Below, piece by piece: positions 12,214-20,537 of a stretch of 64,000 bases of DNA (its first letter is position 1; each line of letters opens with the position of its first letter). This DNA is from Woeseia sp. (lineage in GTDB: Bacteria; Pseudomonadota; Gammaproteobacteria; Steroidobacterales; UBA11654): positions 4,071 through 68,070 of the forward strand of contig BPCL01000005.1 in assembly GCA_019653755.1 (NCBI GenBank), in the 5' to 3' direction. The notes below the pieces were generated by a model. That model saw only the letters and a program-made list of their open reading frames with translations. It was not told where the DNA came from and made no database searches. The position numbers and the translations under genes were made by a program.

Positions 12214-12813
12214 ATGGCTGTATGGGTATTTCCTATCCATCTTTATGCACTACTCGTGCCTTTAATTCTTATCCCAGCAGCAAATAACAATAGATTGTTA
12301 TTAGAAGAAAAGACCTTCAATGTAGATCTTTTGTTTCTTGCCGCTGTGGTCTTGGTATTAGGTAGTTTATTCGAAATTATACAAAACCATGTTGACCGTT
12401 GGCTTGTCACAACTGAAAGCGCGAGCGGAAATGGCTATAGCCTGATGGATGGATTGTTTACTTTTTTCATCTTACTTGGTCAAGCTCTTATTCTTATTGC
12501 GCTCATAGGTCAAAGCAACATAGTTAAAGCTTTTGCAGTAATTTGTGTGCTTGCAGGACCAATTTTATATTACAGGAAACAGCTGGTTTTCTTGCCCACC
12601 AGTCTAATAGGCACTGTTAACACTATAGTTGCTTTCATAATTTTTAATGATTGGGTTATTTTTATGCAAATAATCACCGTTGCTCTAACTATTATTTTCT
12701 TTAACCGGCTTCTGGACACTGGTAATCAGTTCTATCATGGCTTAACAACATTGGCAGCCTCATCAGGAATCTTGTTTCTGGCCTTCGTTATTAATAATGC
12801 TAGCTATGGATAG
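12214..12813 (+). CDS. hypothetical polytopic membrane protein
   Basis: 199 aa with 5-6 hydrophobic spans and no recognisable motif. Its end overlaps the next gene's start. Confidence 0.45.
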   Translation: MAVWVFPIHLYALLVPLILIPAANNNRLLLEEKTFNVDLLFLAAVVLVLGSLFEIIQNHVDRWLVTTESASGNGYSLMDGLFTFFILLGQALILIALIGQSNIVKAFAVICVLAGPILYYRKQLVFLPTSLIGTVNTIVAFIIFNDWVIFMQIITVALTIIFFNRLLDTGNQFYHGLTTLAASSGILFLAFVINNASYG

Positions 12814-14032: not shown

Positions 14033-14185
14033 ATGAACCAAGATAAAAAATATCTCTATATTTTTGCAGGACTCGCACTGATCCCGTTTGTAATACTATT
14101 ACTATTTAATGCCTGGGCATTAATTTCATCTATATATTTTCCAGAATATAACCCAGTGGCAGTTATATGCGGACCTCGTGTCTAA
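14033..14185 (+). CDS. possible 50-aa small membrane protein
   Basis: ATG at 14033, TAA at 14183. MNQDKKYLYIFAGLALIPFVILLLFNAWALISSIYFPEYNPVAVICGPRV contains one hydrophobic helix. Its stop overlaps the internal ATG (14185) of the next ORF as TAATG. Below the ORF-track cutoff and weakly supported. Confidence 0.25.
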   Translation: MNQDKKYLYIFAGLALIPFVILLLFNAWALISSIYFPEYNPVAVICGPRV

Positions 14186-14622
14186 TGATTAGAAAACCAC
14201 TGCTCTTATTAGGGCTACTATTTTTTATACCCCATTCAGCAATAAGTGAAATTGTTGTAAAAAATGCATGGGTCAGAGCTGCGCCAGCGGGATCTAAAGC
14301 TATGGCAGCTTATATGTTTATCGATAATCAAGGCCCAAAAACAATGAGTTCCTCAAAGATCATCGCCAATGGTTTTGAGAAAGCAGAAGTACACATGAGC
14401 TTTATTGGCAATAATATTGCACAAATGAGAAAACTAGAGAATATCTCTATTGATGGAAAAGAATCAATAACCTTAGAGCCAGGTGGGTTGCATTTAATGT
14501 TAATTAATCCTAACAAAGTACCTAAAAAGAATTCTAAAGTTGAGATACTCATGTTTTTTGAAAATGAAAATAATGCTGAAGTTGTAAGAATTGAAGCTGA
14601 TGTTAGGAGTCAAGAATTATAG
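14167..14622 (+). CDS. copper chaperone PCu(A)C (DUF461)
   Basis: Signal peptide, then VKNAWVRAAPAGSKAMAAYMFIDNQG and EPGGLHLML, typical of PCuAC. The real start may be ATG 14185 (MIRKPLLLLGLLFF). Confidence 0.7.
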   Translation: MRTSCLMIRKPLLLLGLLFFIPHSAISEIVVKNAWVRAAPAGSKAMAAYMFIDNQGPKTMSSSKIIANGFEKAEVHMSFIGNNIAQMRKLENISIDGKESITLEPGGLHLMLINPNKVPKKNSKVEILMFFENENNAEVVRIEADVRSQEL

Positions 14623-14636
14623 AAACGAAAAATAAA

Positions 14637-15236
14637 TTGTTCTTAATATTTGCTGTGATTGCTTTGGTATTCATGGTCTTAATCATACAAAAAGGTCCGA
14701 TATTAAATGAGAAACAACCCATACTTCAAAGTGGAAAAGCATTAAAACAACCCTTAGAAATTATTGACTTTGAGTTGAGAGATCAGAAGAATCAACTGTT
14801 TACAAAAAATGATTTTAAAAATCAATTTACCCTTCTTTTCTTTGGTTATACGAACTGTCCAGATGTTTGCCCAAGCACCATTTATAAACTTAGCCAGATG
14901 AAAAAGAAAATAAGTCAGGATATACCAGAGGCAACTCTCGAGATTGTTTTTATTACGCTTGATCCAGAAAGAGACACGACAGATCGACTTGATGAGTACA
15001 TGAATTTTTTCGATTCCACGATGATTGGTCTAACAGGAAACATTAGTGAAATTGTTAAGCTATCTGCAAATCTTAGTGTATTTTTTCAAAGGATAAACAA
15101 AGAAGATGGGTATGATTTTAATCACACAGCTTCAATTTTTGTAATTAATACAGAGGCTCAGCTTGGAGCTTCGCTCAGCCCGATAAGTTCACTTGAAATG
15201 CTTGAAGAAGATATAAGAATCTTACTGTCAAAATAA
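14637..15236 (+). CDS. SCO1/SenC family copper chaperone (thioredoxin fold)
   Basis: TTG start and an N-terminal TM helix. Has the CPDVCP metal-binding motif in the context LLFFGYTNCPDVCPST and a downstream His (FNHTASIF). Confidence 0.8.
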   Translation: MFLIFAVIALVFMVLIIQKGPILNEKQPILQSGKALKQPLEIIDFELRDQKNQLFTKNDFKNQFTLLFFGYTNCPDVCPSTIYKLSQMKKKISQDIPEATLEIVFITLDPERDTTDRLDEYMNFFDSTMIGLTGNISEIVKLSANLSVFFQRINKEDGYDFNHTASIFVINTEAQLGASLSPISSLEMLEEDIRILLSK

Positions 15237-15248
15237 TACTAAATTAGA

Positions 15249-15617
15249 TCAATTCTTTGATATGCCAATCTTATCTCTGGCCAATAGATTATTCTCTTCT
15301 ATGTCATCAAGAACCCAATCACTTGTTAACAACCTTGCAGAATATTGCCTGTTATATAGAAAAGGCATAATTAGTTGGAAAATTCCGAAAGTTACTAATG
15401 AAAAAATTAAGTGAAAGACGCCAATAGAGATCTCCCCTCTGAAAATAGGAACAAAAAAGCCAAAAAAGAAATAGGTCCAAGAGTAGCCAACAAAACAAGT
15501 CCCGTTTAAGCCTGATCCCTTATGCCTTATTTTTATCTTTTTTTGCCAGCCCATAACCAAGGTTCCAATGATTAAGGGTAGGAAAATCATGATAATTATA
15601 AATAAAGCAATTCCCAT
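15249..15617 (-). CDS. hypothetical membrane protein
   Basis: 122 aa with about 3 hydrophobic spans. Its ATG overlaps the stop of the upstream SDR gene (TAATG on the minus strand), suggesting translational coupling. Confidence 0.5.
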   Translation of the reverse strand: MGIALFIIIMIFLPLIIGTLVMGWQKKIKIRHKGSGLNGTCFVGYSWTYFFFGFFVPIFRGEISIGVFHLIFSLVTFGIFQLIMPFLYNRQYSARLLTSDWVLDDIEENNLLARDKIGISKN

Positions 15618-16495
15618 TAGATAACTCCTATGTCGTTAATATCAGTTACTTTAGAAGCATAATCCCATACGGATTCTTTTAGATTATTATCATATGAAAG
15701 TGGCGATGCTTCTTTTCTTTTGCCATGCTCCCAATAGAAACCGGATTTGCCAATATATTGTAGATCAGAAGTCATTACAATATGATTTAAAGCCCCTTTT
15801 TCAGCGGACTGTAGAAAAGGTTTTATTAAATTTACAATAACGCCATGCATACCTCGCATATGCCGATGAATATTTGTGTTAATAAAATAACCGGCGACAC
15901 TGCAAAAACGTCTATGTTTGTTTGTTCTAGTTTTTCAGACAATATAAAGCTAAAAAGATTAAGGCATAGTTTTGATCTTGCATAGGCTTGAAATCCCATG
16001 GAATGATTAACTTTTTCCCAACCAGTTTCAAAATTAATATCATCAAAATCAAATTCCTTTGCCATTCTATGACCATCTGAAGAAATATTTATTATCCTAG
16101 AATTGTCAGGTTTCTTGAGTAGATCCAAAAGAAGATGGGTCAAGAGGAAGGGTCCAAGAAAATTCGTAGCCATAGTCATTTCAAAACCATCCTCACTTTG
16201 CCTTCTAATTGACTCAGTAATTCCAGCATTATTAATTAAGACATCTAATTGAGAATAATGATTATGGATTTGTCTTGATAATTCTCTTAACGCCCTAAAA
16301 GAAGAAACATCACAATCAAAATATTCAATATCTTTATTTCCAGAAGATCTAATAATCTCATCTTTTGAGCTAATACCTTTTTCAGTATCAAAATCAACGA
16401 GAATCAGTCTAGCCCCTTTATCTGCGAGTGCTTTGGCTGCAATTCTACCCCCTTCCGCTGGCTGTGCCAGTAATTAAGACTGTCTTATCTTGCAT
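15617..16495 (-). CDS. short-chain dehydrogenase/reductase (retinol-dehydrogenase-like SDR), two frame breaks
   Basis: My reading from ATG 16495: MQDKTVLITGTASGRG.. (TGxxxGxG), then ..LDVLINNAGI.. (NNAG). ORF 15832..16179 gives ISSDGH...YARSKL (YxxxK). ORF 15617..15859 supplies the C-terminus. Breaks near 16450 and 15891. Confidence 0.7.
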
Positions 16496-16499
16496 TAAT

Positions 16500-17466
16500 T
16501 TAGCTGAGCATGCTTGGATCCATGCCAACACTTTTCATCTGTTCCAAGACTACAGATTTTGTTATCTCTTCAATTCCATTTTCCCTTGCAAAATCCTTTT
16601 ACGTTATTAATAGCCATTTCTATAATGCCTGGTGGGGTTGATGCAATCATATCTTTTGATTCCTGATCCCAAATCATGCTTAGTTTCGACTCAAATTCAT
16701 TTTTTGGAGCATCTTCTTTTAACTTTCTTTCTTTTGCTTTTTTAGCTCGTTTTCTTTTGTCCCAGTATTCAGATTCTTCTGGCTTAGTGGCTTCTAATAC
16801 AGCTCTTGCGTCAGGGGTTGAAGTCATAATATTTAACAAACTTTCCAAATACTCATTTGGAACAACCACAAACATTTCCTCAGGTTTTAATCGATTATTC
16901 ATTCTGCCTCCCAGATCACCAGGAGTAATGACAACGTTGCCGTCATGCCAAGGTGTTGCAAAAAGATCACTGCAAAAAGAAGAGCCAGCAGCTCCTCTTG
17001 GCGGGGTGCCATCCAATACAGTCCTTGCACCTCCAATAAAGTTAGCCCAATGGGGTGTGCAAACTACGACTATCCAATCTACAAATATATCATCAGGGAC
17101 ATCAGAAAGCGGTGCGGCACCAATCCCAACAACAGTATTTTGGGGTAAAACATACTCTCCAGTTTTAATTTTCTCAGCCCCCACATCTGTATAGGCAGGT
17201 ATATTTTGTGCAAGGTATTGTCCGTTCCTTATCTCGTCAGTTCCCTCATGAACTCCTGCGGTGTAGACCCCTGTGGTGCAATCGTGATGATGTCTATCAA
17301 ATGAAACTATCTCACCTTTATCCATGGCATGTCTAACAATAGAACATGGAACCACTTTCTTTTGTTCATAAGGTTTAGGTATTTCTTCTTTGAATAAGCT
17401 AATGGCAACCGGATTACCTCTTACCTTTCCAACTAAAGAGTCACTAAGTTCTTTGAAATCTATCAT
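16500..17466 (-). CDS. DUF169-like protein fused to a C-terminal PCP_red-like helical module, one frame break near the 3' end
   Basis: 298-aa ORF 16570..17466. The ~230-aa N-terminal part resembles DUF169 (family call from memory). After a Lys/Glu linker comes WDQESKDMIASTPPGIIEMAINNVK. Shifting frame near 16595 continues FARENGIEEITKSVVLEQMKSVGMDPSMLS, with a stop at 16502..16500. Confidence 0.55.
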
Positions 17467-17485
17467 ATTTGAATTATAGCCTGTT

Positions 17486-18283
17486 TTATTCTATTGGTCT
17501 TCCAGGCAAAATGCCGCCGTAAAGCATCAGGTCTTCTTTTGGTTTAGATCGCCAAAGCTCTTTAGCAAAACGGGGTATTGCCATTGCTGCTATAGGAAAA
17601 CATTCAACAAACTCTGAAGTTGAAAAAGGCAATCGATGGATGGCGTAACAAAACATGTCTCTTTCTGTTATATGCCAAAACCCACTAACCCCCTTAAGGC
17701 TTGTAGAAACTGACCCATTAGTATTGAAGTAAGCGTCAAATTCAATCTGATTGTCACTATCAACTAACCGATAGTGAGTAGTGTTGGTCATCAGATGATT
17801 CCAAAAACTTGGGAAGCGCTCAGAAACAGGGAGACTTTTATCAATTGTTTCTGCAATAAATGATCTTTCTATATTGGGTTTATTTGGAGCACCCGTTTCT
17901 ATCATCATAAAAGCAATCATATCGATTAAAAATTCTTCAGGAACAGGCTCGGGAATCATCATGGTGCTCCCAGGAAAAAGTTTCTGAGGACCTTGTAGAA
18001 ATCTATAAATTAATTCCTTGTCCCAAATCGAATCAGATGAACCCATTGAAGATGAGTAATTATAATCAGGATCTTCTCCTACGCCTCTACCAAATATTTG
18101 CCAAAGATTTGGGCCTATAATGTTTGCGCTATCTGCAGCTAAAGTATGACAAGCACTGCATCGCTGCTGAAATGCATTTTTACCGTTGAGATAATCGGCA
18201 TTATCCAGCTGATCAGTTGTTGGTGTTGCAAGAACCGCTGTGCTAAAAAAGCAAAAGAAAAATATTTTTAATCCAAAACCCAC
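17486..18283 (-). CDS. exported c-type cytochrome (class I N-terminal domain) with an uncharacterised ~130-aa C-terminal domain
   Basis: Signal peptide MGFGLKIFFFCFFSTAVLA. Haem-binding CSACH in GKNAFQQRCSACHTL..GPNLWQIFGR, and a distal Met candidate in PGSTMMIPE. The C-terminal half has no motif I recognise. Confidence 0.7.
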   Translation of the reverse strand: MGFGLKIFFFCFFSTAVLATPTTDQLDNADYLNGKNAFQQRCSACHTLAADSANIIGPNLWQIFGRGVGEDPDYNYSSSMGSSDSIWDKELIYRFLQGPQKLFPGSTMMIPEPVPEEFLIDMIAFMMIETGAPNKPNIERSFIAETIDKSLPVSERFPSFWNHLMTNTTHYRLVDSDNQIEFDAYFNTNGSVSTSLKGVSGFWHITERDMFCYAIHRLPFSTSEFVECFPIAAMAIPRFAKELWRSKPKEDLMLYGGILPGRPIE

Positions 18284-18359
18284 TTTAATTTAGTATTTTT
18301 TTTATAAGAAATATAAATTAGCATTATTACTTTAAAGATAAAACGGTTAGAATTTTGAC

Positions 18360-19235
18360 ATGAAATTTTGGGGTAAGAAAAATGAGAAGTGGGTTGAAAG
18401 CCCAATGCATAATAACTGGTATCAATCCAGTTCATATTTTCTAAGCTCTTTCGCTCTAATAACCTCTGTAAGCGAGGACGGAGTAACAAGTATTGGACCT
18501 TATCAACTTTCTTTCCCTTTTGGCGTTATTGAACGCAGAGAAGTAATTGTGATTTCAAGAAGAGGATCAAATACCTCGACTAACTTAAAAAGAGTCAAAA
18601 AGTGCGCAATGAATTGGGTTGAATACGATAGAAGTAAAGTAAAGAACATCGTCGACCTAGGTTACCCTGGCCAAGAACCGGTGGAAAAAATGGAAGACTG
18701 TCCTTATGAACTTGAAGAAACTCCAACAGAAGCTTTCCGTGATGATCCAGACAGACCAAAAGTTATTAAAGATGCGTTTCAAGTTTTTGAATGTGAATTA
18801 AATGATAATCCTGATGATTTTTACTACAAGGGAACTGAGCATACAGAGTATCTTCTTCTTAAACTTAATAACATCTACCTAAGAGAACGATGGAGAAATA
18901 ACCTGGATTTAGGCGATGACATGAAGATTCCAAATATGCCTATTAGCTTTGGTTTTAGAAATGCTAATCAGTTCTGGTTCGCCAAACATAAGAAACCATT
19001 TTGGTTACCAACCCCAGAAGGGAAAGGTGCTGCTCATGACGCTGTAATGTATATAGGAAATAGAATCGATCCAGAAATCAACTTTACAGAAAATGCCTGT
19101 AAACAACTAACTGGAGTGCCAAAGGTTTTTGTTAAAACAGTCCTAAAAGGCATCATTAAAGAAGCAAAACAAGAAGGCGTCACAGTAATCGATGAAGCTT
19201 TCGTTAAAAAAGTTAACGAAAACAGAAATAAATAG
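18360..19235 (+). CDS. flavin-reductase-like (split-barrel) protein fused to a C-terminal PCP_red-like module
   Basis: 291 aa. The N-terminal ~190 aa resemble the flavin reductase-like domain (..FALITSVSEDGVTSIGPYQLSF.., ..AFQVFECELND..EYLLLKLNNIYLRE). The C-terminus is INFTENACKQLTGVPKVFVKTVLKGIIKEAKQEGVTVIDEAFVKKV. Confidence 0.55.
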   Translation: MKFWGKKNEKWVESPMHNNWYQSSSYFLSSFALITSVSEDGVTSIGPYQLSFPFGVIERREVIVISRRGSNTSTNLKRVKKCAMNWVEYDRSKVKNIVDLGYPGQEPVEKMEDCPYELEETPTEAFRDDPDRPKVIKDAFQVFECELNDNPDDFYYKGTEHTEYLLLKLNNIYLRERWRNNLDLGDDMKIPNMPISFGFRNANQFWFAKHKKPFWLPTPEGKGAAHDAVMYIGNRIDPEINFTENACKQLTGVPKVFVKTVLKGIIKEAKQEGVTVIDEAFVKKVNENRNK

Positions 19236-19239
19236 ATTA

Positions 19240-20537
19240 ATGTCTCATCGAACCAAGGACCTTCCTAAACTATCTGGGTTCGCTCATCTGATTAGAGAAC
19301 TTAGATATCATGAATTCTCTAGGCAAAGCATAGGCATAATACTAGTAAGTGTTTTTTGCTTTGAAACATCTCCAGATTTAATTTTTCCTTATGCATCTCA
19401 TTTTGCTATAAGCCTCATTCTTCTGGGCCTAGCTAACCGAATGTACGCATCAGGATTCGTGTTAAAAAATAAAGAACTTTCCACAACAGGGCCTTATGCT
19501 TTTATGAGACATCCTCTCTACACTGGAAATATAATGATTCTAATAGGTTTGTGTCTAATTAATGGTTTCTTTTGGTCTTTTATAACTGCATTTATTTTTT
19601 TGTGTTTTATTACCCGACTGCAATTGAATATGAGGACAGAAAACTAAAATTACTTTTTCCAGAAACTTGGGATGAATGGGCATCTGTGACACCAGCGCTA
19701 ATGCCTAAAATGGATCTTAAAGGCACTTTTAATGGAAAAATTTTTTCTCAATTAGATCTAAGAAGCTGGTCTTTGAAAAAAAGTTTAGTAACAAACTACG
19801 AACCAGTCATTGTGATTTATGTAATTGCCTGGTTAATTGTTATTGTAATCGTGGCTAATCAAGAAAATGAATCAATAGAGCCGAGTTTCATTGAATCTGT
19901 TGAAAAAGCTCTTAGAGATGATAAAGCTCTAGTCAAATCCTATGAGGGCAACCAAGGCATTCTCTTTAAACTTAATCTTGGTGGTAAAAACTATCTCATT
20001 AAACGAGCAAATAAATCAAACGTCTTCTTAAGATACTTTAATCAAAAAAGCTCTCAATCGAGAATTAGAAATATACAACAAACTTAAAGACATCATGGGA
20101 TTCCGAATTGTTTTGGAATGACTTGGAGAGGTGATCTTATTCTAGAATACATTGAGGGACAATCCTATCGTGACAAACAATACGAATTAGCAGGTAATCA
20201 GTCATTCTTTCAAGAATTATTAGATCTAATATTAAATATCCATAATAAAGGCATAGCCCATGGCGATCTTAAAAGAAAGGATAATATTCTTGTCAACAAC
20301 GACAATCAGCCATTTTTAATAGATTTTGGCACTGCAATCTCCATTGATAATTCCAAAGGACAAATAAAAAGGTTCGTCTTTCGTTTTTTGAAATCAACTG
20401 ACCTAAATGCCTGGATCAAACATAAATACAACAGGAACTATAACGATATAATCGAAGATGATAGAAAGTATTACTCACCTACACTTATAGAAAAGTGTTA
20501 TAGAATTATAAGAAAGATATTTACCAAAAACGGATAG
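19240..20537 (+). CDS. membrane ICMT/PEMT-family methyltransferase fused to a protein-kinase-like domain, about three frame breaks
   Basis: ORF 19192..19647 has GPYAFMRHPLYTGNIMILIG (ICMT motif). ORF 19572..20087 continues in one frame from the methyltransferase end (YYPTAIEYEDRKLKLLFPETWDEW), through a TM helix, into a kinase N-lobe (GNQGILFKLNLGGKNYLIKRA). ORF 20118..20537 has HGDLKRKDNILV and LIDFGTA. Breaks near 19598, 20037 and 20103. Confidence 0.55.

Follow-up and report, generated by a model that had tools for sequence, protein, structure and literature searches.

The window analyzed here is a 64,000-nucleotide (nt) stretch of contig BPCL01000005.1 (Woeseia sp., assembly GCA_019653755.1), with 38% G+C, from an uncultured marine gammaproteobacterium. 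Between positions 16500 and 19235 it encodes a protein with a DUF169 domain, a cytochrome c, and a flavin-reductase-like (FR) protein. An earlier note, made from the letters of the sequence, had remarked that the DUF169 and FR proteins end in tails resembling PCP_red (PF08369), the C-terminal domain of the BchB/ChlB subunit of DPOR, and had suggested that these tails are docking or partner-recognition elements of an electron-transfer system. Its central observation stands: profile comparison, an independent hidden Markov model (HMM), and a global alignment of two flavin reductase families (FR1 and FR2) place the same PCP_red-type module at the end of both proteins. The divergent layout that it described is likewise borne out by the list of open reading frames (ORFs), in which the DUF169 and cytochrome c genes are on the minus strand and the FR gene is on the plus strand. 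The features of the two tailed proteins are as follows, with lengths in amino acids (aa) and the sources of each assignment in parentheses:

16500..17466, minus strand: DUF169-PCP_red gene, corrected, with its stop codon at 16500-16502; 321 aa (ORF list, three-frame translation, DNA alignment to L004, L005, and L001)
16570-17466, minus strand: DUF169-like ORF as read, uncorrected (ORF list)
16834..17427, minus strand: DUF169 domain, residues 14-211 (Pfam PF02596, alignment conservation, AlphaFold)
16681..16779, minus strand: Lys/Glu/Ala-rich linker from the DUF169 domain to the tail (alignment, AlphaFold)
16500..16680, minus strand: PCP_red-type C-terminal module, residues 263-321, split by the frameshift at ~16596 (Pfam, PDB sequence search, Foldseek)
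18360..19235, plus strand: FR-like protein with a PCP_red-type tail, 291 aa, family FR1 (homologues, AlphaFold, hhalign)
18387..18989, plus strand: predicted split-barrel flavin-reductase-like domain, residues ~10-210 (Foldseek against PDB)
19080..19235, plus strand: divergent PCP_red-type C-terminal module, residues 241-291 (Pfam, hhalign, independent HMM, AlphaFold)

As read, the DUF169 ORF stops prematurely, and its tail resumes in a second frame, which ends in DFARENGIEEITKSVVLEQMKSVGMDPSMLS and the stop codon at 16500-16502. The break that had been suspected near 16595 is real: alignment with three related contigs reveals a 1-nt insertion at ~16596, plus an adjacent substitution, and the corrected frame gives the tail as it was first written. 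A single-cell genome and many metagenomes encode intact 321-aa versions of the protein at 99% identity (P0001-P0052). Compared over 21 kb (positions 6500-27463) with the contig of that single-cell genome, L004 (AG-435-A22), the window shows 96.0% identity and 22 small indels. Because these indels break not only the DUF169 gene (16596) but also the genes for an SDR (~15892 and ~16451), pyruvate dehydrogenase E1 (~22630), and a methyltransferase and a kinase (19598-20094), the comparison suggests an assembly or sequencing error as the likeliest source of the frameshift; gene decay to a pseudogene was considered and rejected as the likeliest reading.

The two proteins and their catalytic domains

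The N-terminal 210 residues of the DUF169 protein belong to DUF169/COG2043: the assignment made in the earlier note is upheld by a PF02596 match of 87.2 bits that spans model positions 7-207 of 209 (gathering score 27). In the family alignment, Cys41, Cys63, and Cys165 are invariant, Cys136 is nearly so, and a GDxGGRM motif is conserved; the cysteine pattern and the motif are common to tail-less DUF169 proteins as well (e.g., P0259 and P0260). What distinguishes the window's subfamily from other DUF169/COG2043 proteins is that it always has the linker and the PCP_red tail. The linker, a flexible and charged tether, varies in length and sequence across the alignment, and the AlphaFold model (predicted local distance difference test [pLDDT] of 85.4 overall and mostly 85 to 96 in the DUF169 domain) renders it as a long helix and then, at residues 252-255, a stretch of low pLDDT. 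Foldseek found no PDB fold match to the modeled DUF169 domain at an E value of ≤0.001, a PDB sequence search with the full-length protein returned nothing, and a search of representative proteins yielded only 125 proteins at E ≤ 0.001, which added diversity but no annotation. DUF169 is a widespread family that is without known function and, on present evidence, without a solved structural relative. Literature searches on DUF169, on PF08369/PCP_red, and on the BchB C-terminal domain turned up no functional study, and mentions of DUF169 were incidental (a selenium gene-neighborhood table, SepRS operons, and a Desulfovibrio nitrate fitness table). Those published mentions concern archaea and anaerobes, whereas the window's subfamily occurs in aerobic marine Gammaproteobacteria and in Actinomycetota.

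The FR protein falls into a family, FR1, of which we found 496 homologues; JGI calls some of these flavin reductase, and some carry precomputed PF01613 or PF01243 annotation. Its AlphaFold model (pLDDT of 83.7) has 102 matches in the PDB at E ≤ 0.001 (Foldseek), the best being NbaA (4Z85, E = 1.1e-10), followed by flavoredoxin, HpaC, PheA2, SMOB, and NtaB. Among the 50 matches listed, all are flavin reductases or FMN-binding split-barrel proteins and are aligned on the FR catalytic domain, so that the N-terminal domain, as modeled, has the split-barrel flavin reductase fold. At the level of sequence, the Flavin_Reduct domain anticipated in the earlier note was not recovered: Pfam gave no PF01613 match in the window's protein at E ≤ 1, only weak matches to DUF447_N (0.017) and PNPOx_N (0.093), and a PDB sequence search with the full-length protein found nothing.

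The closest described architecture is Flavin_Reduct+PCP_red (PF01613+PF08369; here FR2), which comprises at least 667 proteins and for which JGI offers only the name “flavin reductase (DIM6/NTAB) family.” The window's FR protein shares its domain order and length (about 275-295 aa), and a global hhalign comparison of FR1 with FR2, tail included, gives 98.6% (E = 1e-14); FR1 differs in being too divergent for either Pfam threshold and in standing beside DUF169 only in the window's clade. PCP_red is also a feature of a large flavin reductase family, one divergent branch of which escapes Pfam.

The catalytic domains of the two proteins are unrelated, as had been claimed: one is without a PDB fold match, and the other is a split-barrel flavin reductase. 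The arrangement recalls two-component flavin-dependent systems (HpaC, PheA2, SMOB, and NtaB), in which a small split-barrel reductase is found beside a second enzyme of a different fold. The partner, however, is here a DUF169 protein and not a known flavin-dependent oxygenase, and we know of no tagging domain that is shared by the components of such systems.

A PCP_red-type module at both C termini

PCP_red is represented in the PDB by the isolated domain (2KRU), by Nostoc asr4154 (2L09), and by ChlB (2XDQ and 2YNM). Searched alone, the DUF169 tail matches the Pfam model at E = 1.2e-5 and 25.6 bits, over positions 1-42 of 45. This falls short of the gathering score of 32.5, as do the values for P0002 (26.4) and P0245 (31.6), but orthologues at 46-58% identity exceed it (P0241, 33.5 bits; P0243, 36.3 bits), and PF08369 features in the precomputed annotation of most close DUF169-PCP_red homologues. 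The top PDB sequence matches of the tail are the ChlB C terminus (2XDQ) and the isolated domain (2KRU). With the whole predicted model as the query, the best Foldseek match is again 2KRU, at the tail, with a TM score (target) of 0.76 and a root mean square deviation (rmsd) of 0.9 Å over 51 columns, followed by 2L09; ChlB (2YNM_D) ranks 21st, with an rmsd of 1.2 Å. Resemblance to BchB is confined to this end of the protein: the Pfam results include no nitrogenase-like domain, and the NCBIfam BchB models cover no more than the final ~90 residues, at 23 bits against a threshold of 509. In DPOR, by contrast, the module sits on a nitrogenase-like subunit rather than on a DUF169 or flavin reductase scaffold. 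The DUF169 tail also superposes on the small helical domain of RuvB/RuvBL AAA+ ATPases (rmsd of ~1.9 Å over 56 residues), which is probably a generic fold resemblance.

For the FR protein, the earlier note had expected the same Pfam family. The window's tail alone reaches only 14.6 bits (E = 0.036), also below the gathering score. Both tails nonetheless fit the ~45-residue PF08369 pattern, W/F-x2-E/D-A-x3-L-x3-P-x2-[FIV], then A-x3-G-x3-[IV]-[TD], colinearly over the full model, with the FR1 tail differing by Phe in place of the leading Trp and by Ile/Val-Asp in place of Ile-Thr. Both are predicted to form the same succession of elements in register (strand, short helix, long helix, strand, helix, i.e., beta-alpha-alpha-beta-alpha), at pLDDT values of 86 to 95.

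Could the likeness of the FR tail to PCP_red be accidental, that of any generic C terminus made of amphipathic helices, with no shared module at all? Three results speak for this: the E value of 0.036 just given; the PDB sequence search with an FR-tail profile, which returned no BchB chain; and the direct comparison of the window's two tails, which the earlier note had expected to beat shuffled controls and which did not, since 837 of 5,000 shuffles reach its Smith-Waterman score. (What the FR-tail profile did match among PDB sequences, such as caspase-3 and SimC7, was dismissed as chance.) When the gap-free register of the earlier note is held fixed, the tails score at z ~4, with none of 20,000 shuffles doing as well.

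Profiles tell against chance. For FR tails and non-FR modules, hhalign gives a probability of 89.9% (E = 1.7e-6) over 44 columns without a gap, whereas the reversed control reaches 1.1%, and this alignment returns the proposed register independently. An HMM built from non-FR modules only (DUF169 tails, stand-alone proteins of 58-61 aa, and tandem repeats) matches the extreme C terminus of 116 of 117 FR-family proteins, colinearly, with a median of 11.9 and a maximum of 19.1 bits; the maximum over 2,400 shuffled proteins is 6.9 bits. PCP_red is the top Pfam family for FR tails, 23 of 34 nonredundant ones matching at E ≤ 1 (best E = 4.2e-5). The decisive link is the sister family FR2, to which FR1 is globally and colinearly homologous. 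A 272-aa FR2 member from an alphaproteobacterial locus (L023) matches Flavin_Reduct at 2e-19 and passes the Pfam PCP_red threshold with 37.3 bits, and the tail region of the FR2 HMM matches the DUF169 tail in every distant locus of the genome scan described below (E = 1e-5 to 1e-11). The same alphaproteobacterial locus encodes a stand-alone FR1-type tail that matches PCP_red at 4.7e-4. With the identical predicted topology added, chance likeness becomes very improbable, and the PCP_red-type module common to both C termini is real, the FR copy being a divergent variant that the Pfam threshold misses.

The module has no conserved Cys or His; what is conserved are hydrophobic core residues together with Pro and Gly. 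Beyond the two scaffolds described here, it is found by itself, as three to five copies in tandem, and in company with Usp and rubredoxin-like domains. Examples from the representative search are P0354 (221 aa), with three tandem modules, and P0359 (773 aa), with five, plus two Usp domains and a rubredoxin-like motif.

Both architectures (PF02596+PF08369 and PF01613+PF08369) are already present in precomputed Pfam annotation. New here are the recognition of the divergent FR1 tail as PCP_red, the constancy of the tail in this DUF169 subfamily, and, from the gene neighborhoods, two independent co-encodings and a set of companions (the SDR, the membrane protein, and SRPBCC).

Gene neighborhoods and the possible role of the tails

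A scan of species-representative genomes yielded 66 DUF169-PCP_red loci, and the tail is kept wherever the C terminus is present (66/66). Those from Gammaproteobacteria include Halieaceae, Spongiibacteraceae, and the cultured carriers Halioglobus japonicus and Thalassomonas sp. M1454; the remainder are from Actinomycetota (including Acidimicrobiales and Nanopelagicales) and one alphaproteobacterium. We refer to gammaproteobacterial loci with a DUF169 identity of ≥75% as the close clade. Neighbor counts are lower bounds, as greedy gene calling left DUF169 uncalled in 13 GC-rich loci. Three features near tailed genes figure in the neighborhoods below, two of them in the window and the third in the alphaproteobacterial locus:

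15617..16495, minus strand: SDR gene, broken by indels at ~15892 and ~16451 (three-frame translation, indel list)
12214..12813, plus strand: polytopic membrane protein, cluster c6 (tblastn of c6 members against the window, E values down to 5e-24)
L023 4723-4935, plus strand: stand-alone FR1-type PCP_red protein, 70 aa (Pfam)

In the window, the SDR gene starts 4 nt after the DUF169 stop codon, and the DUF169 gene is cotranscribed with this tightly coupled partner. The SDR is also the most widely conserved neighbor of DUF169-PCP_red: its cluster (c0) occupies position +1 in at least 15 loci, among which are the distant L021, L023, and L026, and an adh_short gene lies directly downstream of DUF169 in L001 and L002. 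The c6 membrane protein, for which Pfam gave no match, is found next to DUF169-PCP_red in at least 11 loci of Alphaproteobacteria, Gammaproteobacteria, and Actinomycetota. SRPBCC (Polyketide_cyc2) domains, which are lipid-binding, are either adjacent to DUF169-PCP_red or fused after its PCP_red module: triple DUF169+PCP_red+SRPBCC fusions occur in Actinomycetota (P0244 and P0245, at loci such as L041 and L043), and other actinobacterial loci have a separate SRPBCC gene just upstream of DUF169. All three accompany DUF169-PCP_red more steadily than the FR gene does.

Conserved co-occurrence of the DUF169 and FR genes, whose absence the earlier note would have counted against its proposal, holds in two places. 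In the close clade, FR is divergent to DUF169 in all 18 loci that have enough upstream sequence. The alphaproteobacterial locus L023 presents, in order, a MarR-like gene, DUF169-PCP_red, SDR, the membrane protein, the 70-aa PCP_red protein, and Flavin_Reduct+PCP_red, and is an independent second co-encoding, with a different reductase subfamily. DUF169-PCP_red and FR-PCP_red are thus encoded together in two unrelated lineages.

The reading that we put forward, tentatively and with close to even doubt, is that the matching tails help bring the DUF169 and FR proteins together. In such a docking model, the DUF169-PCP_red protein and the SDR would act on a small hydrophobic molecule, probably one associated with the membrane. 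The module would be a protein-protein contact element and not a cofactor site, because it is without conserved Cys or His and is seen as a single protein, as tandem repeats, and on several redox scaffolds. A PCP_red-tagged flavin reductase would have joined the DUF169 operon as a neighbor in two lineages, that of the window and that of one alphaproteobacterium, where it may supply reducing equivalents (reduced flavin or electrons), with the matching tails aiding the assembly of the two enzymes. That reduced flavin itself would pass to the DUF169 protein is pure conjecture.

Several results weigh against docking. The 44 more distant of the 66 loci have neither an FR1 nor an FR2 gene at up to 10 kb from DUF169, and none of six FR-type genes (FR1 and FR2) examined in other genomes has a DUF169 neighbor, so the expected co-occurrence fails outside the close clade and L023. 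Elsewhere, FR1 and FR2 genes stand alone or adjoin UbiD or SDR genes (FR2 is divergent to a UbiD-family decarboxylase in two genomes, L073 and L074, and is beside an SDR in one), and because these FR genes are without DUF169, each tail must, in most organisms, function with the other partner absent. The adjacency throughout the close clade is a single evolutionary event, which with L023 makes only two independent cases. Nor is there a docking precedent, because, well studied though DPOR is, we found no description in the literature of what PCP_red does in BchB/ChlB.

In the main rival reading, each tail serves its own enzyme. The tails would then be homologous but functionally independent, as a homo-oligomerization aid or a tethered lid, and the adjacency would be lineage-specific synteny without physical coupling. 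Each architecture is widespread in settings where the gene for the other is not close by; homodimers are the usual form of split-barrel flavin reductases, which makes a C-terminal oligomerization aid plausible; and in BchB/ChlB the domain sits within a heterotetramer that has no separate PCP_red partner. Set against this, the unrelated L023 again pairs a PCP_red-tagged reductase of another subfamily, and a stand-alone PCP_red protein besides, with a DUF169 operon, and loci of the close clade hold strictly to divergent DUF169 and FR genes, both with and without a cytochrome c gene in between. We regard independent tails as a distinct possibility, though on balance a doubtful one; in that event, the module would simply be a recurrent C-terminal stabilizing domain.

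The module might instead bind a common small ligand or cofactor (e.g., a tetrapyrrole, a flavin, or a hydrophobic substrate), so that a shared tail would signify a shared metabolite rather than a protein contact. It does occur on enzymes whose substrates are large and hydrophobic or resemble cofactors (DPOR, flavin reductases, and the SRPBCC fusions), and it exists in stand-alone and tandem-repeat forms. But the domain is only about 45-55 residues long, has neither conserved Cys/His nor evident pocket-forming residues, and is the subject of two nuclear magnetic resonance (NMR) entries whose titles report no ligand, which together make ligand binding quite improbable.

Were the tails to prove docking tags, as the docking model has it, they would offer a new organizing principle for two-component redox enzymes. 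A bolder and unlikely extension is that PCP_red is a general plug-in heterodimerization tag and that DUF169 and FR form a docked two-component reductase that works with the SDR on a membrane-associated hydrophobic substrate, the DUF169 protein possibly being a metal or Fe-S protein by way of its four conserved cysteines. If this were true, it would supply a first function for DUF169, and the C-terminal domain of BchB/ChlB would be a relic of the same docking system.

The cytochrome c gene and the divergent intergenic region

Between the two tailed genes, and just beyond the SDR gene, lie three further features:

17486..18283, minus strand: cytochrome c, 265 aa, with one CxxCH (Pfam Cytochrom_C, 29.1 bits; NCBIfam c-550-like)
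18284..18359, no strand: AT-rich divergent intergenic region, 76 nt (upstream regions of nine loci compared by eye)
14167-15236, plus strand: PCuAC and SCO1/SenC copper-chaperone genes

A fuller picture built on the earlier note would join the DUF169 protein, the cytochrome c, the FR protein, and the SDR into one electron-transfer chain, with the tails docking onto the cytochrome. The position of the cytochrome c gene is in keeping with this, as it lies between the two tailed genes, on the same strand as the DUF169 gene and 19 nt upstream of it. The protein itself is not: its signal-like hydrophobic N-terminal segment and c-type heme motif imply export, whereas neither the DUF169 nor the FR sequence has a signal peptide, both being redox-type proteins of the cytoplasm. 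Its ~150-aa C-terminal region has no family match. The gene is, moreover, an insertion/deletion polymorphism at this place: of 20 close-clade loci, 11 have it and 9 do not, and L023 is also without it. Because of the signal-like N terminus, which the enzymes do not have, and the presence in only 11 of 20 loci, a role for the cytochrome in a DUF169/FR chain is unlikely, and the four-protein chain as a whole is a highly unlikely construction. The cytochrome c is probably not part of the DUF169/FR system; we take it for a periplasmic bystander that belongs more plausibly with the nearby SCO1 and PCuAC genes, copper chaperones that suggest a respiratory role.

The intergenic region contains a ~40-nt element, AAATTAGCATTATTACTTTAAAGATAAAACGGTTAGAAT, at ~18300-18345, 5′ of the FR gene. 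By-eye comparison finds it also upstream of FR in L001, L004, L007, L009, L012, L014, and L025. The element is kept with or without the cytochrome c gene and may be a promoter or operator.

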